Part shown: positions 1,008 through 38,022 of the stretch, piece by piece
Layout of the letters: every line of letters begins with the position of its first letter
Numbering within the stretch: the first letter of the stretch is position 1
Origin: an uncultured Planctomycetia bacterium
Lineage (GTDB): Bacteria > Omnitrophota > Gorgyraeia > 2-02-FULL-51-18
Assembly (NCBI GenBank): GCA_964606485.1
Contig: CAZSGP010000003.1
Location: forward strand, 66,481 to 130,480
Direction of reading: 5' to 3'
Length of the DNA: 64,000 bases
Program-made: the position numbers and the translations under genes
Notes under the pieces: generated by a model
The model's database searches: none
What the model saw: only the letters and a program-made list of their open reading frames with translations
Told to the model about the DNA's origin: nothing

Positions 1008-1115
1008 ATGCCCAATAAGAAAAATGTTTTTAAATTCTGTACAACTAGACTTATTCAAACCATTTCTTACGGACTGGTTTTATGTTTGCTTGTCCAGGAT
1101 TTGGCCTGGGCCGCG
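1008..1115 (+). other. N-terminal Sec-type signal peptide or signal anchor of the giant protein
   Basis: MPNKKNVFKFCTTRLIQTISYGLVLCLLVQDLAWA|AP has a basic n-region, a ~15-aa hydrophobic core and an AxA-like AWA motif. Confidence 0.5.
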
Positions 1116-4100
1116 CCTGATTTAAAGTTAGGAGTTAAAGGTAAAGAGCAAAGTCTTAAGTGGGCTAAGACGCTTCTTCCCGAATTGCCAGAGTCGATTG
1201 TTAAGCTCGACGACGCTTGGAGGGGGACAGGGGGGTCCGGCCCCTCTGGCACCGTCATCTTAATCCAAGACGCCCATGCGAACCCTTCGGGGCAAATGAA
1301 TCTTGCGAAGACGTTGGACCTCATCTTTAGTCATGGTGGGGAGGGTGCTCAGGTTTTTCTTGAAGCCGGTTTCGGAGACGATTCTCTTTCCTTTTTAAGA
1401 AATCATGGCTCATTGTCCGAGCGCAAGCGAATCGCCTATAAATATTTATCTAAAGGTCTTCTAAACGGAGAAGAGTACTTGGATCTTACAAGCTCTCACA
1501 ACTTCGCTTTGTGGGGCGTGGAAGATAAGGGTCTTTATCTCAAGGCCCTTAAAAATTATAAGGTCGTAGCTCAAGACCGGTCTAAGTTCAAAGACTATCT
1601 CTCAAAGATTCAAACGACACTAGACATTCTAAAGCCGAGACTGTTAAATCCCGTTCTCTATAAGCTCGACCAAGATCGACAAAGCTATCTTAAAGATAAT
1701 CTTTCGCTTACGGATTATGCGGATACTTTACTTCGCGGAAATGACAGGAAGCGATACCCTAACCTTCAAAAAATAAGCTCTCTCAAGAGCTTAGAGCAAA
1801 GACTCTCCCAACAAAATATTTCACCCCAACACCAAAAGAGAATTGTCGAGCGACTACTTAAGCGCTCTAAGTCTCTGGATTATAAATCGATCCTTGAAGA
1901 AGTGAGGCGTTTGGAGAGCGATGCGTTTCAAGCGCTCACCCTGAATGCCGACGAACAAGCGCTTCTGGATGGTCAACGCTCGCTTGAATTCCTAAAGAAA
2001 CTTTTAAATCTAACCCTAACCCCGGAAGAATATGAAGAATACAAAAGCATTCGTCATCCTGAGCGCAGCGAAGGATCTTCTCTAAGCGAATCATCTAGAA
2101 AAGATTCTTCGGCCAGCGGGCCTCAGAATGACCCTGTAGCGCGTCTAACCGGTTTTCTCAATCAGAATATTATGATGCTCGGAAGCTACTACGAGCGAGC
2201 GCTTTTCCTGGAACCCGGATTTGACTCTATCGTGGCGAACGCCGAAAGTTTTTATGGCCTCACTCTTCAGAGAGACGAGGCCTTCGTCCAGAATATGTTA
2301 AAGAAATCGCCTCGAGCCCTTAGTATTTTAATAGCGGGTGGCTACCACACTCCTAATCTCAAGCGACTCTTGAGAGAAAAAAATATCGCTTATATCGTGC
2401 TGACTCCGCAAGTGACGCGGGAAACAAGCATCGCTAAGTATGAAAAGATTCTCTTAAATCAAAATCTCTTAACCCTAAACCCCGCGACTCTTAATATCAC
2501 TCAAAGCCACATGAGAATAGCTCCTCAAAGAAATATTGCGGGGAGCCGGCTGGTGGCAGAGGTGAAAGACTTGAACGAAACATTCAAGGAGGTTCTGCGT
2601 GATCGCAAAGAAGAGATTCGGGAAGCTAAAACTAGGATAGACGATAATTTGGCGGCCGAAATGATCGGTCAAATGCGAAGTGTTGTTGAAATTTTAGTGA
2701 AATCTCACCAGCTCGAAGCTGGAGGATTGATTGAAGAGAAGCTTGGCCGATTAAAAGAGTTAAAAAATTTAAACTCGAACGCAAAGGAGCAGATTGCACA
2801 ACTTTATGTTTTTTTGAAACGGCATTTTAGCTTGTCCCGTTTTCAGAGTTTTGTCACCGAACACGCTTTGCTTCCCGAGCAAAAAATTTCACCCTCAGTT
2901 GAACGCTACGGGTTAAATCTTGGCGATTATGCGGCGCGGTATACGAAAGCGATGAAAGTAAGTGGGATAAAAAAATTCAGCGGCGTGTACCGTGGAGAGT
3001 TGGCCGTGGTTTCTGGTTATCATTCGCTGATCAGCATCGAAGATCTGGACCGGCTTTCCGAGACGCTGGCCCGCAAAGGCTATGGTTTTGTTTTTGAGGA
3101 TGGCCTAACCTTTTCCCGGGCGGTGAATCCAAAAACTGAAAGTCCTGTAGAACTGCTTCAAATTCCCGTAACGGACTCCGAAACCGGGAAGACGATTACC
3201 CGGGTCGAGCTTGTTCTTTATGACAAGCCCGACGTTGAAGAGGAGCTTGGAAAGTACACCACGGCGATTCGCCAAAGACTTTATCCCCACCAATACTACA
3301 GAGAGACGATTCATCATCCCGATCTAAAAAGACATCAGGTGGATTTCGAGAAAAGTATTTCTGAAATCGCCAAAAGACACGGAATTAACGGACGGTTGAG
3401 TGACGATAAAATCAAAAAAATGGAGCTTTCCATCGCTCTGTCGCTGGTGGCCGAAACATTGTTTTTGAAATTGCCAAAGTCTCTGCAAAAGGAAGCCGAA
3501 GAGCTGGGTATACGCTCCGGTGGAGCGTATCCGGGCTTAGTCCATTTGCATAGCTCTATGAGAACCGCCGTGGAAACTCTTGCGAATCATGAAAAATCAG
3601 AAAAACTCATGAGCATAGACGTTGATAAGCGGACCGCAGAACAAATTGCTGATCTTAATGCGCTAGAGCAGAAACTGTCGCTCGAGAGCCAGAAAAATTT
3701 AGCGGGAAAAAACGCTTTTGTGGATAATTTCCCGCTTTTTATTTTAGACGACCATCTTTTTAAGGATATGGGGGAGCGACAACAAGAAGAATGGAAAGCC
3801 TTTTTTAGAAAAGTAGCCAAGTATTATGCTCAGATGCAATCGGATTATGAGAACATTTGGTCGGAAGATTCAACCAATCCGGCAGCGGCCATTATTGAGC
3901 CGAATGCAGTGTCGATTAATCTTTTACCTGGAAGAACAGAGGCGCAAATTTTGCGCGCACTCAAACAGAGTCATTCGCAAGAAGTATTTAGCCAAAGCGT
4001 TGATCTGGATGCAGACTGTCAATTATTTTTAAATGACATCCCCAAAATCATCACCCACAAAGGACTAGCGGAGATCAAGTTGCTACTCGTTGGCATGAAG

Positions 4101-7100
4101 CCTATTCTCCTTAGAGCAGAAAAGCGAGAGCTCTTTAAACGACTGGAAAAAGAAGTTGAGGGTGTTGAGGCACGTATACGCGCGATAGAGCGCTCGATTG
4201 GAGCAAGACTTTCAGAAGAACCCAAAGGCGCTTCTGTTGTTTGGACGCATGCCAAAGAGATGATGGACGCTATTCAAAAAAGTCCAATCGCACACAGCGG
4301 AAGAGATCAGATTAAACAATTAGCCAAAGATCTTAAAACGATCCCCAGTAAAGCGGAGGAAATTCGAAGGGAAACTAGAGAGTTGTCCGGAAAAATTCAG
4401 TTTAATAACGGAGCCGCCGAGAGATTTGATGAAATTTTGAATTCATCGCTCAAGAATGGAGAAGAAAGAGAGCAATTGGCGCGGCTTTATTGGTATCTCG
4501 ACCAAATGTTCACCGTTCGGGAAGCGCCAACAGTTCGCGTTCAGATTCAGTCCACTCAAAAGCAGTTTGGAAAGTATGCGCTGGATTATTATTTGGAATA
4601 TTTAAAAGAGGGAAATCCACAGGATGCCGCCGCGCTTAAAAGCAGGATAGCTGGAGCGGGATCTTATGCTCGGGAGGGGGTGGGCGTGACTGGTGACTCC
4701 GAAGATTTGCTTAACGATGATGAAGTTCAAAAAGCATCGCGAGTGCTGGATTTTGGAGGACTTGGATTTTTATTCGAAGACGGTCTGACCTTCGCCCGCA
4801 TTCTACCAACGACAACGAGCGCGACGGTAAAATCCTTGTTCATCTATACAAAGAAAAAGGGCGACGCCGCTATCCAAGTCAGGCCCGAGCTTTGGCTGTA
4901 CGCGATGCCGGCAGATCCAGCAACGAAGCTTTTGTTTTTTCAAGACGTCATGGGTGATTTGTATCCGCAGATCGCGCACAGTCCCTTGGTGAAGCGGGTT
5001 TTAGAACAAAAAGAGGCGCGTATTGATGATTATCCGCATCTACCCGGTTTTCTTCCTTCGAAGCTCATCCGCTCTTATTTTGACCTGACAAAGTCAGAAT
5101 CATCCCCTAAGGATTTATTTAAAAGACTGGAAAAGGCAAAAGCGCTTGAACCTCAAGCGCGACAATTAGCTCTTCATGAATTTTACGCTCACATTGGAAA
5201 GGCGCTTTATTTGACCGCAGGAAGCGAGTTTAAGGCTCGTTTCAAAGCAAAGCTTTTTTCGGGGGTTTTGCCGAATGGAGCGATTTATCTTAAAAACTAC
5301 GGGGCACAGCTTAAGAAGTACTACGCGCTCGTGGAGTCTGGCCGGGCCGATTATTGGTCGGAGCAATTGGCGGAGGATGAGCTTGCGGAGAATTTCTTCG
5401 GGGACGTCTTTGCATTTTATTGTTTAAACCAGCTTTTAAAAATACGCTCAATTTACCAGATGAGTGACGAAGACAGTTCTGTGGAATTGACGGTGTTTGT
5501 TAAAGAGTTTGTGGAAAGTCTTAAAGAAAAACATGCTCGAGGTTTGAATGCTTGGCAAATAGAGGATGAGGATGCCGCTAAGAAGATCGAATCGGTTCAG
5601 GCGATCATTCAAGAGCCCAATTGGGTCGGCAGCCCGAAGCATCTTTCAGACGAAACGACAGAGCCTTCTACGCTGAGAGCAGTTGCCAGTCATTTTATTC
5701 GCGAAACGGTTACAGAAGCTAAGAAGCTCTTTGAGAACCCCAATAGAACGGAAAATCAATTGGCGTGGATGATCGAAGGGTTGAGTATTGCCATAAGGGA
5801 TTTTACCCCCTTACTTGAAGATCGTAAGACGACTCGGCTAGCATCTTTAATTTTGGTCCTACCGGTTTACGCGAGGGCACTTTTTTACAGAGGAGATTAT
5901 TCCCAAATGCTCCGGTTTATACAATTAAACCTGCATTATTTGGCCCATTATCTGGAATCGATTGAAGAGAAAAATCTTGCTCAGGCAAATTTTGCGGTAA
6001 GCGTTCACGGGGATTTGCGTAGAACCGTTACCGACGCTATGGCTTTTTTGATCGTAAACGGAAAATACGAATTTGTAAAACCCCTGCAAGAGGCGCTCGA
6101 TAAACTGCGGTCACTCAAGCTCCCAGAGGGCGCTCGTTTAGCGGATTTAAAAGCCTCTTATATTGAATACATAAAAAGGAACAGCGAAGAAATAGACGCC
6201 GCCGTGCTTTACGTGAAGGATCCTTCAAAAGCGCTCAAAATCCAAGCGGAGTTAAGCTCGGCAATTGGTATCCTGAAAGGCGGATTTAAAGTAAAAGCGG
6301 GGGACTTTGTTGACGAGAAATTCTTAAAACTCGCCGGTCTTAAGGAATTTAACCGCTCTCAAAAGGAGCAGTTGGTCTGCCTCTATCTATTTATCAGGGA
6401 TGAATTCAAATACCCTAATTTAATTTCCTTTATCAGTAAGCCCGTGATTACTCCGGAGTCTAAAATTTCAGAATCCATGGAGCGGTACGGCATTCGAGCA
6501 AAGGATTATTATTTGCGTTATGCCAAAAATAAAATGGATACCGAAAATTTTGCCGATCATGAAGGGTTTCTAGATCAATTCATTGGTGTTTTTCGAGCAG
6601 AAGATGAGCGGGTGAGCGGGTACGAGCCTGTGATTACCAGAGAGGATCTGGATGCTCTTTCCGAGATCCTTGCGAAAAGAGGTTTTGGTTTTGTTTTTGA
6701 GGATGGACTCACCTATTCACGGACCATTAATCCTAATGCGTTGGGGCCTGTTCAAATGGTGAATCTGCCTATCAAAGACACCGTGTCCGGAAAGATCGTG
6801 GTCCGGCCTGAAATTGTTCTTTTTGATCGACCGCTCAGCGGCTCCGAGAAGATCAAGCTGTTTGATCGCCAGATGATAGAGTGGCTTTATCCGGACCTGG
6901 CTTTCTCAAGCGTATTTGGAGATCGTTTTCTTGGGCCGCACCAACAGAGCATTGAAGCGTGTATCGCGGCCATTCGCAAGTCCGGTCGAAACACCACCAT
7001 GGATGACGAGAAAATCAAAGGCGCCGCACAACTTGTGTTGTTGTCGATTATTTTTGACTCCCTGTACGAGCGCTTACCCGAAAATTTTATTGCCCGTATT

Positions 7101-10100
7101 GCCAGGATTGCGGCCACCAACAATGTAACGACTCCCGGACCCGCCTACTTAAGAATAATCGGCCGGCACGGAGTGGATGTTATTAATGATAGAAATGAGC
7201 GTGATTCACTTGGTGCTAAAGCGCCCGATCAAAGAACTCCGGATGAGAATCAGAAGATCGATGATCTGAGTTACAGCATCTCCAAGGAATCTATTAAAAG
7301 ACGGATTGGAAAAGTTTTCTTCTCTACCTTTGGCCCCTTGTATGTTTTGAATAAAAATATTCTTAGTCGTGATGGAGAGAGAGTGCCCGATGAAGTTAAA
7401 AAATTATTCGAAGATGTGTCTAAGTATTTTATTGGATTACACGATGATTACCACAATATCTGGGAAGTTCCGGAGGTGGACGCTAATAAACTTCTGCTAG
7501 AAGAACCAAATCCCATTTCAGCGACTTTGAAGCCGTACGCCTTGGAGATACAAGCGATCCGCGTGAACGAAGCTGTCGTGAATGACCCGAATTTTAAAGC
7601 ATCCAACCCCGAGAGTCATCGCGACACCGCGAATGCGTTTATCATGGACATGAAACACATTCGAACCGAAGAGGGATTGTCCCGGATGAGAAGCGTCCTG
7701 TTTGATTTGGTGGCGGCTCTTAAAACGGACAAGTTGAAAGATTTGGCCGCTCAAGCTGAAAGCGCCTTTGAAGAGGCTAAGAATAGAGTAGGTTTGGTGA
7801 CCGCCGCACGGCTTAGTATAGAAACTGGCAATCGCAATCAGGAGATTATTGATCTGTCCCGACAGGCTCTGAGAGTTTATGGTCTAAAAAATTTTGCAAC
7901 CATAATGATCGCTTCCGTTTCGGAGTCAACCCCAGCTTTAGACGAAAGCGGCGCACATCAATTAGACTTGCGTGATGCAACTGCTTTTGCAGAGCTTAGT
8001 CGATTCATTCACGAGGATTACAAAAAGGATTATTCTTATCAAGCGTTGTTCCAAAATTGGAAAGATCTGGAAAGTGTGCATCGCGGGGACGATTACAATG
8101 GGGTTTTTAAGACCCCCGCCGCCAAACAGGATGTATTTTCTTACTACATTTTTGGACGCGTAATCGCTGATGATAAAGATTTTGAAATCGCTTTGAATAA
8201 ACACGATGATGAGGACAGAATTCAGCATAGCGCTCATCGCGCCGCTAAAATTTTTACTGCCATCGACAAATTAGCCCGAGAGTCCGGAGGAGTATTTACA
8301 CTGGGCGAACTTCGAAAAGCCGTCTTTACCGATGTGGATTCAAAATATTTTGATCTGGATCTGGAGCTCATCGACCGCGCGGTACAAATTGCGACGGGTA
8401 GTTTTGAAGAAGGCGCTCGCCTCTCCTGCGAATACATGGAGATGCAAAGAATGGAATTCCTAGGGCGCATTGAAGAAAATGAGACTCGCCGGAAAAAATT
8501 GGCCGACGAACTGACTAAAAAAGCCAAGGCGTATGCGGATGAAATGGAGCGAATCCTCCAAGAGGCCAATTCGAAATTAAAATCTATTCCCAATTCGGAA
8601 GAAATTGTCCACGAAATCGTGCCAGTTATCAAAAAAACATTGAATGACGTGCTCACAAACCCCGCACTGGCGGACCCGGCCAAGTTTGAGCAGGCACTCG
8701 CAACTAACCTAGTCGACGGCATGAAAAACGGCCATCACGCGGGCATTGCAGGGGCGTTGGGGGCGGATTCTCTCAAAGATATCCAAGAGCTGCTTAGCAC
8801 AACCAAGCTAGCCGATGGGAAAAATTTTGTGCAAGCCGTCATGGACTGGCAGGAACAAAATCAAATCTTAACCAAGCTCAAAAAATACGCTGAATCAACA
8901 CTGGTTGAAGGGGTGAGTGTTCCGGAGCTTAAGAAAAAGCAAGGCTTTAAACCCGGTCAAACGGGGCAAGCGTCTGGCGCGCGATTGGCCGCTAAACAGG
9001 AAGTTGATTTTATTGATACGCTCAAAGAATTAAGTGACGACGAAAAGAAGCTTCTTAAGGAGCACTTTGTGGATATGGCGAGCCAAGAATCCAAGCCTTT
9101 GATTGGCCGGGCCGACGATGTGCGTAAAGTTGTATCCGCGCTCTCAAAGCCGAGCGGTTTTAAAAATAGCGTTCTTTTGGTCGGAAAAAAGGGCGTTGGT
9201 AAGTCGGCGCTGGTGCGCATGATTGCTAGATCCATTAAAGAAAAGAAAATTCCCGGCCCGCTTGAGCAGAGAAGAATTTATACCTTAAAAAAATCACTGG
9301 GGTCGACTCCAAGCGACATGAATGACGCGCTGGCTAAGCTTCTGCCGATTTTAGAAAAAACAAAAAATAAAATTATTATTTTCATCGACGAATTTCATGT
9401 GCTGACGCGCGGGATCAACAACACTACGGATTTTGCGGTGGCGGATACCTTGAAACCGTATCTTGAAGAGGGCCGCGTTACCATGATTGGTGCGACGACG
9501 ATTGCCGAGTGCAAGCGATTTATCGAGTCGGAGCCGGGCGGGGCATTTAAAGACCGTTTTGTCGAAGTGAGGCTGGAGGAAACAGACGCTGAAACCACCA
9601 AGGATATCTTGGACGGTTTAAAAGATTTTTATGAGGAAGAGTTTGGGATTCCCATTTCCGAAGGTGCCATTGAAATTGCCGTTGAGCTTTCGGAGCGCTT
9701 CTTGCCGGAGAAATCATTTCCCCGAAAAGCCGTTGACCTCTTGGAGAACACGCTGTCGCACGCTTCAAGTCTTGTGGCCCAGCGCAATTTGCAGATCGAC
9801 GATCTGACAAAGCAGTTGGAATTAAAAACTAAACGCTACATCGGCAACAAGAAAAAAGGTAAAAACGGAGACGACCGGGCGACGACCCAGCTTCACAATC
9901 AAATCATCACCTTGACTCAAGGCATTCTGAAGCTAAAAGCGGAGAGAGATGCTTTAAAAATCACCGAACTCAGTGATCAGGATGTCCGGCGCTACCTGGC
10001 CGATACCACCGGAATTGATTTGGCGCATTTGTCGCAAGGGGAGGCCCAGCGGATGCTGGTGGCCGAAGATGTAATTGGTCAAAAAATCATCGGCCAAGAG

Positions 10101-13100
10101 GCTGCGGTGGGTGCTATTTCCAAGGCGATTCGCCGCTCCCGCTCCGGTATGCGCGACCCCAAGCGTCCCATCGGCAGTTTTGTGCTAGCGGGTCCCACCG
10201 GCGTCGGAAAAACGGAGCTAGCCAAGGCTTTGGCCTTGTTTATGTTTGGCGATGAGTCCAAGATGAAACGCCTGGACATGAGCGAATACATGGAAAAGCA
10301 CAATGCTTCTCGAATGATTGGTTCGCCGCCGGGTTATATCGGGTTTGAAGCGGGCGGAGAGCTTACCGAATACGTCAAAAAAAATCCGTACGCGGTGATT
10401 TTATTCGACGAAATTGAAAAAGCTCATCCGGATGTATTTAATACTCTTTTGCAAATTTTGTCGGATGGCCGCCTGACGGACGGTAAAGGCGAAACCGTCG
10501 ATTTTAAAAATACAGTGATTATTCTCACATCTAATGTCGGCATGACTTCCATTGCGGATTATTTCAAAGGCTTCGAGGAATCCATTAAGCACGCTGAAAG
10601 CTCTGAGGGAATTGATCTAGCGATAAAAGGGATGAACGAAAGAATTGCCGAAGCAGTAAAGAAAGGAATTAACGGTGACCCCGCGCGTTTTAAACCGGAA
10701 TTTTTAAACCGCTTGGATGCAGTGATTCCGATGAGCATCTTGTCGCCTGAAAACGTAAAAGGTATTGCTCGTATCAAAGTGGATAAGGAAATCAGGGCCC
10801 GGCTCGAGAGCGAAAAATGGAGTGTCACTATTTTGCCGGAAGTTCACGAGCTCGTTGCAAAAGAGGGTTACGACCCCGTTTTCGGTGCCCGTCCGCTTAA
10901 CCGCGCCATTGACCGCATGATTTTAGATCCTTTAAGCACTCAAGTCTTGATGACGAAAGCTAAAGAGGGAGAAGAAGCGTCCGGAAACATCGTGATTTCA
11001 GCGATTGGCAAAGAAATTCATTTTAAAATTGATTTAAAGAAACAAGGTGTGATTCAAACCCTGCCTTATCCTGAGGAGCAAAAAGCCATTTATGAAGCAC
11101 TGTTTCAAGAAATCAATAACACTCTCGACAGTGCTGATAGCGCGCTTACGGAAGAAACGCTTAAAAAAATCCTTAAAGTTGATGATAGGGCCGGTGTTTT
11201 AAGCTCCCAAAGCGCCGACTACGGCGTTTACAAGCATAATCAGCCGCTCGCATTTGAAGCAGAAAAAGATAAATCAAAGCGCTCCAATCACAATGCTCCC
11301 AGTAAGGATTCGGGGGTTTTGAAAGCTCAGGAACTCATTTTAGCCGCACTGCAGAGCGAGCCTAAGGTAAACGCAGTAATGAAATTTATTCAATTATTTT
11401 CAAAATGGGCCAAAGAAAATAATGTCGACGCCGAGTTTATCAATCTGGAATGGACTGTTAAAGATAAGAAGCTCCTGATTCGCATTAAAAAAGCCGATAA
11501 AAATGTGATTAAAGATGACGAAGCGAAGACTCTAGTCGAATTCCTTCAGCATAATCCCAAAACCCAAGAAGAGGCTGACGAGATAGCCCGTAAAATTGCC
11601 GAAGAAAAAGGGATTACGGGCGGACAAGCCCTTTTGCGTCTCAAGGCGGCGTTTATTGCGCTCGGAGGAGAATCGACGTTTGGAACATTTGAAAACACTT
11701 ATTGGGCAAGCATTGTGTTAGATGAAGATCTTCAAAAGATGGCGGACGAGTCAAAGCTTAAAGCCGAGACAGCCTATAAGCTGAAGTTGTTGGAGGCATT
11801 ATTTGATTCTCTCCCTGAGCGGTCTATGAGTGATGATCCCAAAAAAACCAATCTCCCGATGGATCGATTTAAATTTTCTATTACCGATGAATTGTGTGGG
11901 TATAAAGGTTATAAAGCGCGCAAACCGTCCGAATCAGATCAAAATAATAAAACAGTTCTTATTTTAGTGAATCCAAAAACAGCGAACTGGAAAATATTTT
12001 TTCAGGATTTCCGATTATATTTAGATGAGTACTACCCCTATTACATGGCCCGCTATTCGGCTTTGGTCGAAAAACTTCAATTTGGAAAACTTGAAGAGCG
12101 GGAGTCGGTTGTTGTCGCGGCAGGTGCGACGGACCAAACTGTCAAAAATCAAGGGGTAGCACCGAAGTCTATTCCTCAGGAATACACGGACATGCTAAAA
12201 AACATTAATGATTTGTACCAATATTTTCCAACTAACATAGCGATTCGGCTTAAGGACAAGCCTCTAGTTGCGGCCATTGTGCTTTATCACGCCTTATTTA
12301 AAAATGATGAGCTTGAGTCTTTTATGAATCTCTGCGTAAATCAGCAAATCGATGAATTTAAAAGGCAGTTAAATGGTTTGCCGGTTATACTAAGTTTGAT
12401 TAATAGATACGATGCTACCAGTATTGAGAGCGGATCCTTGATAGCCCCTGGAGTTCTCCCGCAAATCTGCTTTGTCTCGGGCCTGGAGGAGGATGAGCGT
12501 GGTTCGTATAGAAGATTTTTCTTAGGAAGAACCGCTACAAAATTCTATTCAGGTGATAGTTCGGATTTGGCAACTCAATCAAAATTAGTTATCAACGTTT
12601 CTGAATTAAATGAGCTTCGCGAGAATCTAAAAAAAGCAAAGATCACCAGCCTCCAACGGTCGGCAGCGAAGAGCTCCTCATCTAAAGAATTAAGTAGTGT
12701 GTCCCCGGAATCTGCGGAATCTACCAAGGCCCAAGGAAAACTTTCAAGAAAAACTGTTGCAGAGCTGTTTAGACAGTTTGCCGATCAGGTTAATATCCGT
12801 GGGCCTATCGACAATGAATGTTTTGTCGAATTTAATAGGTCCAACTCGAATGAATTCGTCTTAGAAAAATATACCCAGCGCCGTCAGCAAAGGGCGCGCA
12901 TAAAAATCCAGTCGGAGAAGGGACGAATCCGGAAATTAGAAATTACGCTGTGGCCCGCAGATAAAGGACCTGTAAGAGCGCTTTATATCAACAGAGCCGT
13001 CAATCTAATCCTAGATGTTGTTTTTTTAGGTAAAACACAAGAAGTAATCGTGGTGGTTGATGATAGGGAGCTTGTTGGATTTTTAAGTGCCTATGAATCC

Positions 13101-16100
13101 AATGCAGATAAATCCGATGAATCCATGGAGACTTTAAACACTCGCGTGATCGCCAAATCCGACGCTTTGAAGCGCGCTCAGGAAGATCCTGATTTCGCTA
13201 AGGCATTGAAGTGGAGGAATAAAAAATCTGCTGCACCATCTAACCCACTCGAAGGAGATGTTAAAGCTATTCTTGAGCAAGCGCGTCAGGCCAATGAAAA
13301 TGAGTCGGGCGATCTTAGTGCTGTGAGGGGCGCCGACAATGAACTTGCCATTCGAGCCGAGGATTTTTCTTTGCTGACGACAAAGGATTTCGAAGAAATT
13401 TTAGATAGAGCTTTTTTAGTAGAAGAATCGACGCTTTCAGCTCGTGCTATCCGTTTGACGATAGGCGATTGGGCTAGAAGAAAAAACCAACTAGTTTATT
13501 TGCGCGAGCAGGAAGAGGGGGATGATTCAGTATCGGTATTCGAGCTAAAAATTGGGCAAGCGATCCAGGCGAGCGAATTGATGAAGTGGCTACTGGAGCA
13601 GGACCTTCCGACGGATAACCCCGAAGTCCAGGCCGCTTGGGGAAAAGCTAAAATTAAAATCCGCCGTTTGGCGATAGAGAAGATTACAGGAAGGCAGTCT
13701 GCCGCTTCGGCTCAAGATGTCAAAAATCAAGGACTGACACCGAATGCACCGAATGAATTTAAAGCGCAAGTCCTTCAAAGAGCGTTGGCGAATGTGCGCA
13801 ATAAAAATATTCGCCGCTTCAAGGGTGGAGCCGTAACCAAGGCGTCGGAATCTGAATCTACATTGGTTCTTTTAGACTTCCCCCAAGACGACGCTGATTA
13901 CGATCCCGATCTATTCAGTCCTAGAGTCGCTTCGAAACTGCACCCGGCGGCCATGGAGCTTGCTCGGGAGATTGTCGAGTATCTGAATGGACAGTCGGGC
14001 AACAAGCGCAAAGCCTATGTGAATCAAGACGTTGAGACCGTTTTTGAAGGGGATGTTGAGATTGAGAATGTCTCTGCCGTGGGCATTTCCTTTGAGCGAA
14101 TGACGCAAACTCTAGAAGAAGCCCAGGCTGGCACTGTCGAGCTTTTGCGCGTTGTCGAAGAGTTCCTATTAAAAAAACAAGCTTCGCTTTCAAGTGTCGG
14201 CGATAAATTAAGTAAGGTGTCCCCGGAATCTGCTACTTCAGGTTGGCAATTATTGAATCGTGAGGGGACTGAATATATCAAAATTTCTGTCCCAAAAAAT
14301 TTGGAAGATAGGTTGCTAGGGAAGCCGCTTTTACAAAAGCTAGTTTATCTTTTAGCAGTTGAAGATCTTGTGCAAGCGAAAGATTTTATAAAATCGAATC
14401 TTTCCAAAATTTTAGCAGAAATAAAGAAATTAAATGTCGGGGAAGGACGACTCTGGGCTACAGCCCCGTCCGGAACTGTATTGATTAACGATGGAGCGCC
14501 TACGGAAGGTGCGCTGATTATTCGATTGGAAGAATTTGAAACTACTTTCACAGAATCGAAACAGGAGAGTGCGCAGGTTATATTTAATTACCCTTTATTT
14601 GAAACTGACGTATATTTTAACGCCGATGAAAAAAACGGAAAAAATCTTCGGGAGGTTGGCGCGATAAAAACTCCTTTTGACCAGAGTCCTGTTTTGTGTT
14701 ATCCCGAAGAAATGATTGAGCTTCGCCGTAATCTGGAAGCGCAGAAAGCGAATTCGGGGGACACGAAACCTAATTCTGCAAAAGGCACGGGCGAATTAAG
14801 TAAGGTGTCCCCGGGTTCTAAAGAAAAAGAAAAAAATGTTTCTCAGTGGCAAAAATTTGTGGAAGAGTTGAAGACTAGCGAATCTGCCGCCCCCATCCCC
14901 CCAGCCTCGGCGGACAAGTCAGCTCAAACTGTCAAAAATCAAGCACTGACACCGAATATAACTAAAATTATCTCCCAGTTAGAATCTAAATTAAGTGATG
15001 ACAATTGGGCTGTCTGTCTAGCCGCCGCCACAGCACTCGGACCTATCTACCAAGCTCTCTTCACTCAAGGTAAGATGTCCTTAGAAACCCTAGAATCTAA
15101 ATTAAGAGATAACAATTGGGCTGTCCGTCAAGCCGCCGCCATAGCACTCGGACCTATCTACCAAACTCTCATCACTCAAGGCAAAAAAGTCTCCTTAGAA
15201 ACCTTAGAATCTAAATTAAGCGATTACGAGCGGGATGCCGCCGCCACAGTACTTGGATTTATCTACCAAACTCTCATCACTCAAGGCAAAAAAGTCTTTT
15301 TAAAAACCCTAGAATCTAAATTAATGGATCGCGATGGGACTGTCCGTCGAGCCTCCGTCACAGCACTCGGATCCATCTACCAAACTCTCTTCACTGAAGG
15401 CAAGATATCCTTAGAAACCCTAGATTCTAAATTAATGGATCGCAATGGGACTGTCCGTCAAGCCGCCGCCACAGCACTCGGACCTATCTACCAAGCTCTC
15501 TTCACTCAAGGTAAGATGTCCTTAGAAACCCTAGAATCTAAATTAAGAGATAACAATTGGGCTGTCCGTCAAGCCGCCGCCATAGCACTCGGACCTATCT
15601 ACCAAACTCTCATCACTCAAGGCAAAAAAGTCTCCCTAAAAACCCTAGAATCTAAATTAAGTGATGGCACTTGGACTGTCCAACAAGCCGCCGTCATAGC
15701 ACTCGGACCTATCTACCAAACTCTCTTCACTCAAGGCAAGATGTCCTTAAAAACCCTAGATTCTAAATTAATGGATCGCAATGGGACTGTCCGTCAAGCC
15801 TCCGTCATAGCACTCGGACCTATCTACCAAACTCTCTTCACTGAAGGCAAGATATCCTTAGAAGCCCTAGAATCTAAATTAAGTGATGACGATGAGGCTG
15901 TCCGCCAAGCCGCCGTCACGGCCTTGGGATCTGTCGCGCTATCAATGATTGTAGCGCAGGAGGCAAAACCCGCCGCGCCCGTCCCCACAGCCTCTGCGGA
16001 CAAGAAGGCTCAAAATATCAAAAGAGAATTAAAAAGCGCGTCCCCGAAATCAAAACTTCAAGAGGAGATGGAAGTGGTTGGCGAATATATTCAAAAGCTA

Positions 16101-18974
16101 CGGACAAATTCAGTAGAAGTGAAACCTGATCGCGCATCACAAGTTTCCATCACCCCAAAAACACAACAAGAGTTTGTGGATCAGCTAAAAGCCAGTGTGA
16201 TGAGCGACCCTAGGCTGGGCGAGGTGGAGGATGAACCCACGATTAGCGTTTCTAATGGGGTTGTGACCGTTCAAAAAGAAGTGGCGGGTAACTTCGATGA
16301 GATTCTCGATAGGCAAATGAAAGTGGCTTATGACGAGGGGGGAATTGTCACAGAAGTTGAGGTTGAGGACGTAAATTTATTTAATCCAAGGGATTGGACT
16401 GAGGGCAATGTTATTGATGTTGGTTTCCTTGCCGAGGGTCAGTGTTTGGTTGTAGTGGTTAAAGATGAGTCGCTCAGGTATTTCATGGATGAATTTCAGG
16501 ACGATATTACAGCGATAGCGAATTTAGGATTCAACTACGAAATAATCTCTCTTTCAGAAGCCATTCGAAGATGCGAAGAGCTTGGCTCAATTTTCAAGTT
16601 TACCGATATTACGAATTCAGACGACACAAAACCTAAGTCTGGGGTCGGCAAAGAATTAAGTAATGTGTCCCTGGAATCTGCAGTAAATTCCGTGCCTACG
16701 GTTTTCCGGCGACCAAATAATGTAGAGCTTGAGAGCGCGCAAGAAGCAGTTAGATTACTCAAAGCGCTAATCCAGTCAGGCACTTTTATTCGCATTGCGT
16801 ATCGATTTATGGATGGAGATGAAGATGTTTCCCGTAGCGTGATCAAGGTGAAAAATGACCAGGACAAATGGCTGCTGGTTCAATACAAGCCGGACCAGGA
16901 TCGCGACGGCTGGCAGCTATTTGATTTGGAAAAAATTTATCAAGACGGCGGATTTATGTACTGGAGCGCAACTTCGCAAGGATTGATCATTTCCAATACA
17001 AGAGACTATTTAGACGACTACCAAAACATAGTCCCTAGAGTATCGTCAGAAATTGCATTGGCTGATTATAAAGGTCTGCGTGCTAACTCAGGGGACACGA
17101 AACCTAATTCTGCAAAAGGCACGGGCGAATTAAGTAAGGTGTTCCCGGGTTCTACTGAGAAGGCGCGGGAATGGCTTGATAAAATTGATACTTGGTTGGT
17201 GCAGACTGAGAACTCAGATCAGATCGATCAATCGATTCGATATGTGGTGGAAGAAGATTCGATTATTAGTATGGGGTTCGGACTGGGTTTTAATGCAGGA
17301 ATGACAATGCCTCGAGTGTTCTCCATAGCCGTCAATTTTGAAAAGGTGAATTGGGAGCAATTATTTAGCGCGATCGAAGACCATGTTTTAGATGAGTATG
17401 GAGACAAAGCAGCTTTTAATTGGCGGAAATTTGTAGAAGAGCTGAAGTCATCCACCGGCGCACGGCTTTCCGAGGAAGAAGAAAAGGTTCGAAAAATTAA
17501 TTTAGCCGGCCAAGCCCCGCGGACAATGGGCCTCAAAAACTTTGCTAGCCTCATGATTTTACCGCTCTATCATGCGGAGCTTGCTCCAGAAGGCGAGATT
17601 ACGGGAGACAAAATTCATAAGGCATATGCGCGGGATTTTGCCTACGAAACTATTTATGACCGGTGGAAGGGCTCGGAGCTGATGCACGGCAATGACGATT
17701 ACAATCGAGCGCTTCCCAGCAAAGAAGAAAAAAGAAAAATGCTGTCTTATTATCTTTTTGGGAAATTTATCATCGGAGAAAAAGGTCTGGAGGCCGCTCT
17801 AAACTACAGAGACCGCGAGAGTGAAATCGAATACAGTGCCATGGTTGCTCCTAAAATTTTCAAGGCGATTGCCGATCTTACGCAGGATCGAGCGGGGAGC
17901 TTTACGATAAATGATGTTCGCAAACGACTTGTCGCTCAAAAAGAAGACGGGGAGCATTTCGAGTTGTACTTAACCCTGATTGACCGGGCAGTGGATATTG
18001 CGGAAAACCGGTTTGAGGAAAACGGTGCGCGGTTGGCTCAGGTCTATGTTCGATTCGCGGCGAGCGTGTATCAAGCACAGAAAAAAGACGGTGAGATCGC
18101 GGTGGGACAACACCGCTTTGAAATTCAGTTTAACGCTAAAAGTGGAGAGCTTCTTCTTATTGATAAGCGTTCCGGAAATTTTGAAAAAATTCCAATGAGA
18201 AATCCGGCGCTGTGGAATCCAAAATCAGGCGAGTTTCAAGTAGAGGCGTCGTTAGCGGATCTTCAGATAGCGCTGCATGCGGCTCAACGCGGAAATCGAT
18301 TTGTGATGGAGAGTTTACCGGCCGAAATATTAAATTCTTCTACAAAGACCTTGATTGAGCTCGGGGTGGATCATTTGCTGGCGGACCCTTCTCAGAGACC
18401 GCTTCTTGCGGCGGCGCTTAAAAGAATTTCCGATTCGCCACTCGCTAAAAATTCTAAAATTGTTTTAAAGTCTATCGGTAATGATATTCGGGTGAGTGAG
18501 CTTCTGGAAAATATCCCCAATAAAGACAAATGGATTGTTGGCTCGTACGAGGAGCTCGATCCGGAATATCGTTTGAACGCGCAGAGAGTCCAGGTGGGAG
18601 AGCTGGGTTGTAACGATGGGTTGCTTATTAAAAACGTCCGCTTTTTGCCGACCCAAAAAGCAACAAGCGGCGATATTTTTAATTACGAAGGTGTCCTTCA
18701 GGCAGCCCTTTTAGAAGGAAAAATTTCATCAGATGTTTTAAAAAATGCGACCCATTCGGAGTCCCAAGCCCTTATTCACGCATTTGAAGAGCTGCTTGGA
18801 CGAACGATTCCTCTCGAGCAATACGGCGCGTTTATCCAGGTGATTACGGGCGTTGAAAAAGTCGATCCCAAAGCGGCACTGGCTTTCACTGTGGCTGCGG
18901 CGTTTCATTTGAAGATCCAACAGAGAGTGGCCGGCGCGCGTCTAGCGCGTTTGATGGCCGAGCGGGCCGCTTAA
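1008..18974 (+). CDS. giant multidomain protein (5,988 aa): signal peptide, three paralogous modules, embedded ClpB/ClpC-like double AAA+ ATPase, HEAT-like repeat array; overall function unknown
   Basis: A single uninterrupted ORF of 17,967 nt. An open frame this long cannot arise by chance, and internal conserved domains confirm the frame throughout. Confidence 0.9.
   Translation: [5988 protein letters not shown]
1240..2400 (+). other. possible TraB/GumN/Tiki-superfamily-like region of the giant protein
   Basis: [13 protein letters not shown] near the start and [26 protein letters not shown] near the end resemble the GTxH...GxxHL...G(Y/F)xV motif pair of the TraB/GumN family, separated by ~360 aa. 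This is a motif-level match only. Confidence 0.25.
2770..8000 (+). repeat. three tandem paralogous protein modules (A1 ~2770-4450, A2 ~4450-6340, A3 ~6340-7870) inside the giant ORF
   Basis: Each module holds ...QLY(V/W/L)(F/Y)L...ERYG(L/I)...DYY(L/A)(R/E)Y...[14 protein letters not shown] at 3079-3110, [13 protein letters not shown] at 4760-4790 and [14 protein letters not shown] at 6681-6712, and further on KYYA...DYxNIWSE...EPN. DNA identity is only local: 20 nt are identical at 3085 and 6687. Confidence 0.6.
7870..8430 (+). repeat. module B, copy 1 (GLKNFA...DDYN...SYYIFG...LIDRAVQIA...FEEGARL)
   Basis: Paralogous to 17525-18040, where the same ordered motif string reads [10 protein letters not shown]...DDYN...SYYLFG...LIDRAVDIA...FEENGARL. 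Confidence 0.55.
9000..10950 (+). other. embedded Hsp100 (ClpB/ClpC-type) tandem AAA+ ATPase unit within the giant protein (aa ~2665-3315)
   Basis: D1 reads [11 protein letters not shown]...[10 protein letters not shown] (Walker A, 9183-9212)...IIFIDEFHV (Walker B)...IGATT...DRF. The short coiled-coil linker is followed by D2, [48 protein letters not shown] (10192-10221)...[17 protein letters not shown]...[46 protein letters not shown]...GARPLNRAI, which is about 70% identical to ClpB D2 by eye. Confidence 0.85.
14979..15935 (+). repeat. 9 tandem HEAT/PBS-lyase-like repeats (37-40 aa each; LESKL-D--W-VRQAAA-ALGPIYQ-L-TQGK-SLET)
   Basis: Tandem 111-120-nt coding repeats. The block 15020-15192 recurs almost exactly at 15461-15633, an offset of 441 nt spanning four units. 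Confidence 0.7.
17525..18040 (+). repeat. module B, copy 2
   Basis: See the first module B copy at 7870-8430. Confidence 0.55.
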
Positions 18975-36753: not shown

Positions 36754-38022
36754 ATGGAACACCATCTCTCAAAATTAAAAAATGGAATACGAGTGGTAAC
36801 AACCCCTATGAAAGAACGCGAATCTGTTTCAATGGGGATCTGGGTGAATGCCGGATCGCGCGATGAAAGCCCGCGCTTAAACGGAATTTCTCATTTTTTG
36901 GAGCATTTAGTTTTCAAGGGAACGGGAAAGCGCACCGCGAACCAAATTAAGGAAGCGGTCGAGGGCGTCGGCGGTAGCCTGAACGCTTTTACGGGAGAAG
37001 AATACACCTGCTTTTTGGCCAAAGTCGCGCGCAAGCACTTTGAAAATGTGTTTGAGGTGTTGGCGGACATGGTCATCAGTGCGAAGCTTGATAAAACGGA
37101 CATCGAAAAAGAGCGCACGGTAATTTTAGAAGAAATCAAAATGACGCAGGATCAACCCTCGCAACTTGTTGAAGAATTTTTGTGTGAAATTTTGTGGCCG
37201 GGACACGCGCTAGGACGCGCCATTGCGGGGACTGCCGAGTCGGTTTCGGGGCTAACGCCGGAGGATATTCGCGAATACCGGGACCGTTTTTATGGAGCCG
37301 CCCACATCACCGTGGCCGCTGCCGGCGCTGTGACACCAAAACTTGTCGAAAAAAAAGCCGCACAATTTTTAACGACAGACCGTTTAAAAAATAATAAAAA
37401 AATAGATCTCTTTCGAGATCCCCGCAAAACAGAGCGCCTCAAACTTCATGTAAAGGCTACCGAGCAAACGCATTTGTCGCTTGCGGTGCATGCGCTTGAG
37501 CGCAATCATCCGAATGAGCGCGCGCTGGATCTTTTGAGTGTGATTTTGGGCGGCAACATGTCGTCCCGTCTCTTTAATGAAGTGCGCGAGGAGCGGGGAC
37601 TTGCTTATGAGATTGGTTCCTCTGAGCGGAAGTTCAAGGAAACAGGAGCGTTCGTGGTCTCAGCGGGGGTTGATCATAAAAAATCCTCTGAAGCGCTGCA
37701 GGTTATTTTGGAAGAGCTTGAGAAAACAACTCAAGCGCTTGTAACCGACGACGAGCTGAAACGCGCAAAAGAGTTTTACTTGGGCCAACTCGGACTTGGA
37801 CTTGAGAATACGATGAATTGTATGATTTGGGCCGGTGAAAGCATCGTCTCGCTCGGAAAGGTCAAAGAGTACACCGACATCGTGAAAGCGGTCCAAAAAA
37901 CGACACGCGAGGACTTGAAAACCGTTGCCAAGAAGTTTCTTCAGCCATCGCGGTTTCATCTTGCCGTGGTGGGCCCGCAGGCCGAAAATCTCAGCAGTTC
38001 GCTGAGGAAAATCTTCTCCTGA
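36754..38022 (+). CDS. M16-family zinc peptidase (insulinase-like)
   Basis: An inverted zinc motif, HFLEHLVFKGT (HxxEH), with an M16 C-terminal domain. Confidence 0.8.
   Translation: MEHHLSKLKNGIRVVTTPMKERESVSMGIWVNAGSRDESPRLNGISHFLEHLVFKGTGKRTANQIKEAVEGVGGSLNAFTGEEYTCFLAKVARKHFENVFEVLADMVISAKLDKTDIEKERTVILEEIKMTQDQPSQLVEEFLCEILWPGHALGRAIAGTAESVSGLTPEDIREYRDRFYGAAHITVAAAGAVTPKLVEKKAAQFLTTDRLKNNKKIDLFRDPRKTERLKLHVKATEQTHLSLAVHALERNHPNERALDLLSVILGGNMSSRLFNEVREERGLAYEIGSSERKFKETGAFVVSAGVDHKKSSEALQVILEELEKTTQALVTDDELKRAKEFYLGQLGLGLENTMNCMIWAGESIVSLGKVKEYTDIVKAVQKTTREDLKTVAKKFLQPSRFHLAVVGPQAENLSSSLRKIFS

Follow-up and report, generated by a model that had tools for sequence, protein, structure and literature searches.

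Introduction

ClpC, a class I Hsp100 protein (Staphylococcus aureus, PDB 6em8; Bacillus subtilis, 3j3s), is a free protein of ~820 aa with an N-domain, two AAA+ rings, a lid, a D2-small domain and a short middle domain. Plasmodium HSP101, a signal-peptide-bearing ClpB-like component of the PTEX translocon which acts outside the producer's cytosol, is also free-standing (~900 aa) and has an intact N-domain and two intact pore loops. MARTX toxins are giant bacterial proteins with a variable string of effectors and enzymes, released by an in-chain protease that cuts the linkers after Leu; one effector, RRSP, has a TIKI-type fold. Viral polyproteins combine unrelated proteins in one ORF, with a short, sharp motif outside the folded domains and a protease-like domain in the chain.

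Giant proteins of Omnitrophota have been described as 'Archaeovorins' (West-Roberts et al. 2023, 10.1101/2023.11.21.568195), with the statement that whether and where they are cleaved is unknown, and as a 'Multi-enzyme metabolic cluster' class (Nielsen & Lui 2026 preprint, 10.64898/2026.06.07.730766). The term 'Clp' occurs in the text of neither paper. For 'AAA', text searches yielded only an AAA_5 entry in one figure legend of the 2023 paper, and the preprint text contains neither 'AAA' nor 'polyprotein' nor 'cleavage'.

In the 64,000-nucleotide stretch of DNA analysed here (the window), a 5,988-aa giant protein carries a ClpC-type module. The module resembles ClpC in its two rings, lid, D2-small and short middle domain, and in the Walker A/B, GY(V/I)G pore loop, Arg finger and sensor 2 of D2; it differs by its embedding in a long chain and by altered or lost D1 KYR loop, GAGxxEG, ERRF and LGF elements, all kept in ClpC. 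With HSP101 it shares a ClpB/ClpC-like double ring and an N-terminal secretion-type signal, and no PTEX-like partners were seen here. The giants of both papers share with it the phylum (where named), tiled unrelated cytosolic-type enzymes, HEAT scaffolding and usually a signal peptide or TM segment, but were catalogued at ≥10,000 aa (or >30,000 aa). Like RRSP, the N-domain is TIKI-type; in contrast to MARTX, Pfam found no C80 cysteine protease domain or RTX repeats, the putative protease is N-terminal and of another fold, and the cargo consists of housekeeping-type metabolic enzymes, not toxins. Viral polyproteins differ in that the giant gene is cellular and chromosomal, with thousands of paralogous versions and shuffled cargo. 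In both of these comparisons, processing of the giant is inferred only.

Organization of the giant gene

The gene is a single uninterrupted ORF flanked by pgpA, cinA and recA, and genes for his, trp and leu biosynthesis also lie in the window. The features are as follows.

1008-18974, + strand: giant ORF, 5,988 aa, member of the Omnitrophota family with N-terminal TIKI-like domain, variable cargo and conserved C-domain
1050-1112, + strand: N-terminal hydrophobic segment, aa ~15-35 (...LVLCLLVQDLAWA|AP), signal peptide or signal anchor (Kyte-Doolittle)
1116-2540, + strand: conserved N-domain, aa 37-511, with invariant D88, H90, E119 and H447
2541-2555, + strand: separator 1, GSRLV, aa 512-516, directly 3' of the N-domain (model pLDDT <50)
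2553-7814, + strand: module 'A' in three copies of ~550-640 aa (aa 516-1068, 1069-1711, 1712-2269; self-BLAST)
4200-4214, 6129-6143 and 7803-7817, + strand: separators GARLS, GARLA and AARLS closing the module 'A' copies
7815-8423, + strand: module 'B' copy 1, aa 2270-2472 (self-BLAST), closed by GARLS at 8412-8426
8424-8987, + strand: 188-aa segment upstream of the Clp unit, closed by GARLA (aa 2657-2661, nt 8976-8990)
8988-10976, + strand: ClpC-type Hsp100 module, aa 2661-3323 (Pfam, NCBIfam, PDB alignment, conservation audit)
~9090-9857, + strand: D1 (AAA and AAA_lid_9)
~9858-10127, + strand: ClpC-length middle region
~10128-10976, + strand: D2 (AAA_2 and ClpB_D2-small)
10977-14942, + strand: orphan region, aa 3324-4645, joined to the Clp unit without a separator
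14943-16052, + strand: HEAT-repeat array, about nine repeats (Pfam HEAT E 1.5e-35, HEAT_2 E 1.2e-27)
16053-17471, + strand: region between HEAT array and module 'B' copy 2, closed by GARLS (aa 5484-5488, nt 17457-17471)
17469-18035, + strand: module 'B' copy 2, aa 5488-5676, closed by GARLA at 18024-18038
18036-18971, + strand: conserved C-terminal domain, aa 5677-5988, terminal helix ...VAGARLARLMAERAA

In self-BLAST, the module 'A' copies were 27-39% identical to one another, and module 'B' copy 1 was 39% identical to aa 5483-5681. Neither the module 'A' copies nor the 188-aa segment matched Pfam, and the latter had no counterpart in the sampled family members. The orphan region had no Pfam match and no homologue among 5.8 billion proteins; its linkers (VKNQ three times, SKVSPES-like five times) are private to this protein. 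The HEAT array appears in the DNA as a 111-nt tandem repeat (14980-15919, 8.5 copies, 82% matches; TRF). The only Kyte-Doolittle peak fitting a membrane or signal segment lies at aa ~15-33 and ends AWA|AP, so that the signal peptide of the initial annotation holds as a single N-terminal hydrophobic segment, which may be a signal peptide or a signal anchor.

Host protein family

The N-terminal 2,657 aa of the giant returned 141 protein matches. Most of the 120 listed were 1,500-4,500 aa long, and all 120 share the N-domain (local phmmer), with cargo Pfam domains differing per protein. The N-domain profile returned 9,254 cluster representatives, with the domain N-terminal in all 150 listed; judged from these matches, the host family comprises at least 9,254 sequence clusters, assigned to Omnitrophota wherever the source gives a name. 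Several paralogues occur per MAG. Members have in common an N-terminal hydrophobic segment, the ~480-aa N-domain, variable enzyme cargo and a ~300-aa C-terminal domain, which formed the very end of the chain in 36 of the 120 relatives sampled. The h-region followed by Q-D/E-x-x-x-A-x-P-D/E was also present in relatives P0121, P0122 and P0126. The N-domain core is a TIKI/TraB/ChaN/erythromycin-esterase-like fold with a large helical insert, and its invariant D-H-E-H tetrad parallels the 2His/2Glu active site of RRSP (PMC6254334). Internal slots of relatives held PEPCK, aldolase, PFK, PGK, PGM, kinases, Lon-type AAA+ and others, and none of about 300 sampled relatives had a Clp module.

The G-A-R-[LM]-[AS] separator

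Nine separator copies were identified in the giant, all at module boundaries and coinciding with every self-repeat boundary; one immediately precedes D1, where the ClpC N-domain would otherwise attach. In the family, GAR[LM] occurred 366 times versus 18 in shuffles (about 20-fold enrichment). The separator density was 1.4 per 1,000 aa across the family's ORFs, and the other genes of the window (14.8 kaa) had none. Every synonymous codon is in use, which indicates that selection acts on the peptide. In most members the cargo slots are bracketed by the separator and the bracketed enzymes of the relatives are complete, as in P0159, where separators enclose PEPCK (976|1025-1595|1625), aldolase (1625|1633-1984|1983) and PFK. 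On this sequence evidence the separators may mark protease cutting sites. Our favoured reading, which we consider about as probable as its negation, is that the ClpC-derived two-ring AAA+ module would be one 'cargo' unit of the modular Omnitrophota giants, with the separators as putative processing sites.

The chain could instead stay intact as a 660-kDa membrane-tethered scaffold, its Clp rings acting as a six-chain hexamerisation hub or cis-acting remodeller and GARLA as a structural or recognition linker, e.g. for docking or modification. HEAT arrays typically serve as scaffolds, and the Clp unit is joined to the orphan and HEAT regions without the separators that neatly bracket the relatives' enzymes: none occurs in the next 2,160 aa, and aa 2661-5487 is the longest (2,827 aa) of 402 inter-motif segments measured in the family. 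The C-terminal GARLA is predicted within a helix, so cleavage need not occur at each copy. The motif is missing entirely from many relatives: 46 long members with the D-H-E-H tetrad had neither GAR[LM] nor any other enriched k-mer, and therefore the N-domain cannot exist solely to cut GAR[LM]. The separator may be clade-specific, or another enzyme may act on it. These motif-less tetrad members and the missing separator 3' of the Clp unit count against the favoured reading. The motif itself is nevertheless a sharp 5-mer without flank conservation which brackets full-length enzymes and was found inside a Pfam envelope in 0 of 50 cases versus 9.2 expected, as is typical of processing sites rather than of a structural element. 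It allows only A, S, T, V or G at the following residue (P1'), and its first copy lies in a low-confidence model linker directly after the N-domain. Packing six 6,000-aa chains around a single ring would probably also be sterically demanding, and we regard the intact scaffold as rather unlikely.

Identity and extent of the Clp module

The initial annotation was supported in that a tandem AAA+ Hsp100 unit lies ~2,660 aa inside a giant chain with a signal-peptide-like start, which is unusual, and both rings scored far over the Pfam cut-offs in the profile search it had named beforehand (AAA 71 bits, AAA_lid_9 59, AAA_2 210 with E 2.6e-62, ClpB_D2-small 64.5). Its location at 9000-10950 was nearly right, the exact limits being 8988-10976. 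Of the proposed ClpB/ClpC type, the ClpC part stands: the module is colinear in one stretch with residues 180-791 of S. aureus ClpC (6em8, E 6.9e-129). ClpB was rejected, as its best stretch covers D2 only. No NCBIfam equivalog cut-off was reached (ClpB 533 bits versus 1232). As had been noted, no Clp_N domain appears among the listed Pfam matches of the segments that span aa 1401-3400, and the Walker A spacing is 336 aa, which agrees with a ClpC-length middle domain. By these alignments, aa 2661-3323 is a real two-ring Hsp100 module of ClpC type, without the N-domain.

That a housekeeping clpC was joined to neighbouring sequence by misassembly or frameshift, or that a captured gene is decaying without function, is very improbable. 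Two findings speak for it: in codon usage the module is more like the housekeeping genes of the window (GC3 0.53, r 0.93) than like the giant's remaining parts (GC3 0.43-0.46, r 0.80-0.84), and D1 is missing 77 of its 133 invariant residues together with both pore loops. However, the reading frame runs through both junctions of the module within an 18-kb ORF, the family separator coincides exactly with the D1 boundary, and the N-domain is cleanly removed; identity to any free-standing Clp is only 39-42%, which does not fit a contaminating clpC, and a housekeeping clpC brought in by misassembly would not have so degenerate a D1.

Conservation of D1 and D2

In a conservation audit the module was aligned with 120 ClpC-like proteins and the ClpC-invariant columns were counted. 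D2 (55% identity to ClpC) is near-canonical, as previously claimed, with 121 of 143 invariant positions (85%) and every catalytic motif kept, which indicates ongoing purifying selection on the motor and argues against a relic. All motifs quoted in the initial annotation were found: in D2, Walker A GPTGVGKTE (aa 3062), GYIGFEAGG (3109), Walker B ILFDEIEKAHPDVFN (3131) and GARPLNRAI (3293); in D1, Walker A GKKGVGKS (2726), Walker B IIFIDEFH (2790), GATT (2828) and KDRF (2848). The Arg finger PEFLNR and sensor 2 GARP of D2 are also present. A replacement of the D2 pore-loop Tyr by Phe was misread: GYIG (GYVG in ClpC) keeps the Tyr, and the Phe that follows is normal in many ClpCs (GYVGF).

D1 (33% identity) is degenerate. 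It retains the listed motifs, but its integrity had been overstated, as only 56 of the 133 invariant positions are kept. The reported lack of the KYRGEFE pore loop was borne out as a deletion ('AGSKYRGEFE' to 'GSTPS----DMND'), the GAGxxEG region is lost, and the Arg finger retains one of its two residues (ERRF to KDRF). The ClpP-docking LGF loop reads KGF, and about 12 inserted residues follow it. Degeneration of D1 and the missing N-domain could also reflect decay instead of specialisation, a point against the favoured reading.

Proposed processing and function

Under the favoured reading, the separators would be endoproteolytic sites, most simply cut after Leu/Met to leave Ala/Ser N-termini, and the precursor would be cut into about ten pieces, possibly by the N-terminal TIKI-like hydrolase in cis or in trans. 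Cutting would release a 2,827-aa fragment (aa 2661-5487) with the Clp unit first, and with the orphan region and HEAT repeats as a C-terminal platform for binding clients or partners. This fragment would hexamerise via its AAA+ rings and thread polypeptides mainly by means of D2, whose motor elements (GYIG, Walker A/B, Arg finger, sensor 2) are intact; having kept its nucleotide-binding motifs and lost both pore loops, D1 would serve assembly or regulation. Since the N-domain is missing and KGF replaces the L/I/V-G-F ClpP loop, the module is probably a stand-alone unfoldase or remodeller, and a ClpP-coupled protease role seems unlikely. Sister fragments or target-cell proteins would be likely substrates.

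By analogy with HSP101 in Plasmodium PTEX, a Sec-exported Clp fragment might in or at a host or prey cell unfold co-released cargo and push it across a membrane. HSP101 structures 6e10 and 6e11 are among the PDB homologues of the module, family members conserve the signal-peptide-like N-terminus, and Omnitrophota are proposed to include episymbionts or predators, with TM helices or a signal peptide reported in 94% of their very long proteins (PMC10066038; 10.64898/2026.06.07.730766). Yet no pore-forming or membrane-insertion module was recognised in the giant by Pfam or hydropathy, the his, trp and leu genes do not suggest strong host dependence, the lack of a Clp unit in all of the about 300 sampled relatives means that such a motor is not a general family requirement, and the extracellular energy supply is unexplained, which makes such a motor improbable. 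A Sec signal would count against the favoured reading as well, by placing an ATPase where ATP is normally absent.

The fusion itself is explained by the family context, which the initial annotation had missed. The embedding that it described stands, and the Clp unit, which it called 'domesticated' as an internal module, makes more sense as cargo than as an engine domesticated in this one protein: judged from the sequences of the relatives, almost any cytosolic enzyme can fill an internal slot of these giant proteins.

Identity and class of the Clp module

The giant protein of 5,988 aa (hereafter the giant) is encoded by a single, uninterrupted ORF at 1008-18974 (+), and carries the Clp module at aa 2661-3323 (window 8988-10976). 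Hsp100 unfoldases are typically free-standing hexamers. The following Pfam domains, all above the gathering cut-off, were identified in the two AAA+ rings of the module (D1 and D2):

aa ~2722-2832, AAA (D1)
aa ~2861-2950, AAA_lid_9 (D1)
aa ~3053-3238, AAA_2 (D2), E 2.6e-62
aa ~3245-3323, ClpB_D2-small (D2)

The succession of AAA plus AAA_lid_9 and AAA_2 plus ClpB_D2-small is the tandem arrangement of Hsp100/Clp class I (two-ring) ATPases, and judged from sequence a chance origin of the matches is excluded. The initial annotation had described a tandem unfoldase of ClpB/ClpC type here; the motifs it quoted were all recovered (aa 2726-3301), and both rings with their accessory domains scored far above threshold in the Pfam search. 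The NCBIfam models of ClpB, ClpA, ClpV, ClpG and ClpK all returned large scores that stayed below cut-off, including the equivalog cut-offs of ClpB (533 vs 1232), ClpA (462 vs 993) and ClpV (418 vs 885), and the module is thus a divergent class I Hsp100 that is the equivalog of no named one.

The closest solved structure was Staphylococcus aureus ClpC (6em8, E 6.9e-129), aligned in a single colinear stretch over ClpC residues 180-791 with few indels across the D1-D2 junction, whereas the best single stretch with ClpB structures covered D2 only. Of the proposed ClpB/ClpC type, the ClpC half was accordingly retained and ClpB was set aside. From the same alignments the middle domain is of ClpC length and the ClpC N-terminal domain is cleanly missing, as the annotation had also proposed: D1 and D2 are separated by the short (half-length) middle domain of the ClpC subfamily, the Pfam matches listed for aa 1401-3400 included no Clp_N, and the ClpC alignment begins at ClpC residue ~163-180. 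In a collection of 5.8 billion proteins, each of the best 120 matches to the module was a free-standing ClpC-like protein, with a length of 707-874 aa and only 39-42% identity.

Conservation of the two rings

Conservation was audited with the 120 best ClpC-like matches as reference, in which 288 columns were at least 97% invariant. The giant kept 121 of 143 such columns in D2 and 56 of 133 in D1, and identity to the representative match P0004 was 55% in D2 and 33% in D1. The Walker A Lys and the Walker B Asp-Glu are present in both rings (GKKGVGKS and IIFIDEFH in D1, GPTGVGKT and ILFDEIEKAH in D2), and D2 also retains sensor 1, the Arg finger (PEFLNR) and sensor 2 (GARPLNR).

The aromatic KYR pore loop is absent from D1 through a 4-residue deletion (GSTPS----DMND vs AGSKYRGEFE), so that the loss of the KYRGEFE pore-1 loop noticed earlier is borne out by the alignment with ClpC-like proteins. 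In addition, the GAGxxEG region after the D1 Walker B is lost, and so is one of the two arginines of the D1 Arg finger (ERRF to KDRF). The aromatic-hydrophobic-Gly pore loop of D2 is kept as GYIG (aa 3109-3112, aligned to GYVG); the Tyr to Phe replacement suggested for this loop was a misreading, since the Tyr is intact and the Phe is the next residue, which is Phe in many ClpCs too. The position of the ClpP-docking (L/I/V/A)-G-F loop reads K-G-F (FKGFE) as compared with LGF or AGF, for which reason coupling to ClpP is doubtful, and an insertion of about 12 aa follows directly after K-G-F. Together, the profile matches and alignments establish a ClpC-derived module whose D2 motor is intact in sequence and whose D1 is degenerate.

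The degenerate D1 bears on the reading of the Clp unit as an artefact or a decaying relic, which is considered highly improbable. The module is in frame at both ends within the ORF, its upstream edge bears the separator motif of the host family, and by its divergence and the state of D1 it is too remote for a housekeeping clpC; as far as sequence tells, it is not an assembly artefact. The module has a GC3 of 0.53 and codon frequencies correlated at r 0.93 with the housekeeping genes of the window, the corresponding values for the flanking parts of the giant (rest of 1008-18971) being 0.43-0.46 and 0.80-0.84. This housekeeping-like codon usage fits capture of a resident-type gene, not foreign contamination, and it is evident that the conserved module differs from the orphan regions in its history or in the constraints on it.

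Host protein family and its cargo

Queries with the N-terminal 2,657 aa of the giant produced 141 protein matches, and most of the 120 listed were 1,500-4,500 aa long; among those listed, nearly every match with a named source bore the label Candidatus Omnitrophota or Omnitrophica. All listed relatives have in common only the first ~510 aa. A C-terminal domain of ~300 aa (C-domain) was shared by at least 36 of the 120 sampled relatives, always at the exact C-terminus, and the sequence between the two domains was different in every relative. The giant has this layout: a hydrophobic segment at the N-terminus, the only one in the protein, is followed by the ~480-aa putative TIKI-like domain (N-domain, aa 37-511) with its invariant D-H-E-H tetrad, and the C-domain at the exact C-terminus ends ...AR(L/M)A...(Q/R/G)(A/S)A.

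Variable modules (cargo) in relatives, among them recognisable enzymes of cytosolic type, included PEPCK, class I aldolase, PFK, PGK, PGM, PPDK, GAPDH, malate synthase and AceK, as well as adenylate kinase, Ser/Thr kinases, methyltransferases, HAD and NUDIX hydrolases, and HEAT arrays. Clp cargo was found in none of the 120 word-index matches, the 79 loci with 10-kb flanks, or the 99 further profile matches. The only other AAA+ cargo of proteostasis type among sampled relatives was of Lon type (PF05362 and PF00004), in the distant JGI protein P0239 (3,718 aa). A free-standing gene of the phosphoglucomutase family is located at window 38706-40085; PGM is among the commonest cargo in relatives, so that this genome, at least, encodes enzymes of the kind as separate genes too.

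A profile search with the N-domain matched 9,254 cluster representatives (clustering at 50% identity), and for 5,983 of them E was no greater than 1e-30. The domain was N-terminal in all 150 representatives listed, proteins reached ~7,000 aa, and single MAGs held five or more paralogues. Many contigs with the N-domain (loci L001, L006-L008, L017, L040 and others) bear the label 'uncultured Planctomycetia', and isolated contigs are assigned to 'Auribacterota' or 'Eisenbacteria'; either these are mislabelled MAGs, or the family reaches beyond Omnitrophota.

The genes next to the giant are ordinary chromosomal ones (pgpA, cinA, recA, recX, alaS, his operon), with trpE, leuA, valS, uvrB, lepA and groEL further downstream. 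Synteny of pgpA, cinA and recA was met in none of the related loci, and the Rfam scan returned one tRNA only, far from the giant gene.

Separator motif between modules

Nine sites of the separator motif, read as G-[AS]-R-L or A-A-R-L, were identified in the giant, all at boundaries of self-repeats or modules:

aa 512, 1065, 1708, 2266, 2469, 2657, 5484, 5673 and 5976, separator

Sites coincide exactly with the edges of the three A modules and two B modules that form the internal repeats, and others lie before the Clp unit, before the C-domain and at the C-domain end. With the separator precisely at its N-terminal edge, the Clp module is established, at the level of sequence comparison, as cargo inserted in a modular family.

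GAR[LM] occurred 366 times in 121 family proteins as against 18 times in shuffles, and the separator proved to be a sharply delimited 5-mer, G-A-R-[L>M]-[A>S>T,V,G], whose flanks are free of conservation on both sides. Its density was 1.3-1.4 per 1,000 aa in family ORFs of independent genome loci and in further representatives; the other genes of the window had none in 14.8 kaa. In six relatives, 0 of 50 separators fell inside Pfam envelopes (9.2 expected), typical positions being 4-35 residues outside domain ends, and enzymes were bracketed by the motif.

Enzymes bracketed by separators in relatives (aa positions)
P0159, a family protein: GARLA976, PEPCK 1025-1595, GARLA1625, aldolase 1633-1984, GARLA1983
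Adenylate kinase of a relative: GARLA2372, adenylate kinase 2405-2596, GARLS2636
HAD domain of a relative: GARLA2089, HAD 2121-2254, GARLA2278

Across the family the first separator has its median position at aa 586, and the median inter-motif segment is 274 aa. A motif that is excluded from domains and brackets enzymes carries the signature of a putative polyprotein processing or junction site. Selection on it acts at the peptide level, because all synonymous codons are used. For the same reason internal translation starts (SD plus ATG/TTG/CTG) were rejected as the reason for the motif; further evidence against them is that the codon needed for GGAG, GGA, is under-represented (12% vs 24%), that GARV is rare (2/281), and that NTG makes only 3 of the 9 Leu codons in the motifs of the giant. 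Over loci L001-L079, which carry the N-domain, and the window, separator codons favour G-ending GC-rich forms (GGC 63%, GCG 54%, CGG 49%, NTG 75%; consensus GGCGCGCGGNTGGCG), with all synonymous codons still present. RNA structure, gene conversion, or microhomology for cargo shuffling are possible sources of this bias.

About 46 long members (P0199-P0238, P0279, P0330) keep the D-H-E-H tetrad yet have no GAR[LM]. No 4- or 5-mer was enriched in these 46 as an alternative separator, and P0279, with five copies of the variant GTRL[AS], was the only one to show a variant. Separator usage seems to be clade-specific.

Chain downstream of the Clp module

For the 1,320 aa downstream of the Clp unit, no homologue at all was found in the collection of 5.8 billion proteins. 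A HEAT array follows this orphan region at 14980-15919 (aa ~4646-5015), with a 111-nt period, 8.5 copies and 82% matches; its expansion is recent, since the tandem repeat persists at the DNA level. Of all bins in the window, 14001-16000 alone has a negative GC skew (-0.065).

Two linker types recur in the post-Clp region:

aa 3712, 4238 and 4642, VKNQ[GA]xxP linker
aa 3896, 4402, 4598, 5218 and 5376, SKVSPES-like linker (two copies 83% identical over 30 aa)

These were rejected as a second separator class and are private duplications of the giant, because each had at most one match in 120 relatives. As the stretch from the Clp unit to aa 5484 is free of separators, the Clp-containing fragment is predicted to be 2,827 aa long, which exceeds every other inter-motif segment observed in the family. 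A giant that stays uncleaved as a scaffold, its AAA+ ring serving as an oligomerisation hub, would accommodate so long a segment and the members devoid of GAR[LM]; set beside the bracketing of enzymes by the motif, this explanation is unlikely.

The model of the C-domain (pLDDT 82) had no convincing structural neighbour. The C-terminal end of the giant (window 18933-18971) reads GARLARLMAERAA before the stop, and family proteins share an amphipathic helix as their C-terminal end, ...(G/A)AR(L/M)Ax(K/R)Mx(E)(Q/R/G)(A/S)A-COOH. The Ala-Ala and Ser-Ala ends may resemble the ssrA-type C-terminal degrons recognised by Clp proteases.

N-domain as candidate protease

D88, H90, E119 and H447 were invariant in 205 of 205 relatives with these positions present, and in the model of the N-domain the tetrad is placed at the ends of core strands. 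The TIKI/TraB/ChaN/erythromycin-esterase superfamily has a catalytic set of two His and two acidic residues (GxxH motifs plus Glu), to which the tetrad may correspond. The first separator comes directly after the domain, in a low-confidence linker of the model. Foldseek with this model gave no significant PDB match, and no family of the Pfam clan (TIKI/TraB/ChaN/erythromycin-esterase) matched at gathering score; below threshold, 21 members yielded three matches to PF04187 (best E 0.017) and four to DUF5694. The N-domain is a plausible protease for the separator motif, and the link between the two is unproven because of the weak fold matches, the 46 tetrad-bearing members without the motif and the one with GTRL[AS].

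MARTX toxins differ in having an inositol-hexakisphosphate-activated cysteine protease domain (Peptidase C80) and RTX repeats, neither of which had a Pfam match anywhere in the giant; the C-terminal T1SS signal is likewise a MARTX feature. A free-standing gene for an M16 peptidase (insulinase / mitochondrial-processing-peptidase-like) is located at window 36754-38022. M16 enzymes often cut two residues after an Arg, a pattern that would match R-L|A and gives a possible lead for an alternative processing protease.

Proposed mechanism

In the most likely mechanism, separators are the places at which the precursor would be cleaved, the simplest site being behind Leu/Met, so as to leave A/S N-termini; the Clp fragment would then hexamerise and thread substrates through D2, with D1 acting in assembly or regulation, and the HEAT and orphan tail may replace the missing Clp N-terminal domain as a client- or partner-binding platform. 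A more far-reaching polyprotein reading, at somewhat less than even probability, is that G-A-R-[LM]|[AS] is a polyprotein processing site in thousands of Omnitrophota genes, whose products would be 'bags' of complete enzymes cut after translation or export by the N-terminal TIKI-like protease or a partner, with the specialised ClpC-derived unfoldase of the giant remodelling or translocating other pieces.

The N-terminus of the giant looks like a Sec signal, in tension with cargo enzymes and an ATPase that need cytosolic cofactors, and the site of action may be the cytoplasm of the producer, the envelope or a partner cell. The Sec-like N-terminus would suit an exported translocation motor like PTEX HSP101, the cofactor need would not, and this reading of the Clp unit is improbable.

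Prior work and significance

A June 2026 preprint (10.64898/2026.06.07.730766) catalogues giant proteins of Omnitrophota of at least 10 kAA as 'multi-enzyme metabolic cluster' proteins, and the words 'Clp', 'AAA', 'cleavage', 'polyprotein' and 'fusion' were not met in a search of its text. Whether and where Omnitrophota giant proteins are cleaved was stated as unknown in 10.1101/2023.11.21.568195. Clp cargo in these giants was found neither in the literature surveyed nor in about 300 sampled relatives, and neither the separator motif nor the N-terminal TIKI-like domain was met in that literature.

The Clp unit places an Hsp100 motor in a new architectural context, lacking the Clp N-terminal domain and the D1 pore loops, with a separator upstream, and fused downstream to orphan and HEAT sequence exceeding 2,000 aa. 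If the polyprotein reading is true, no Hsp100 before it would have been delivered within a polyprotein. For thousands of proteins the separator supplies concrete, testable coordinates of putative cleavage, with the N-domain as candidate protease, and in that case the cleavage sites of Omnitrophota giant proteins would be mapped for the first time; these proteins, if this is confirmed, would become open to piecewise computational and biochemical dissection. Confirmation of the polyprotein reading would be of much wider interest than the Clp unit itself, as it would mean that a virus-like polyprotein strategy is used on a large scale by cellular bacteria.
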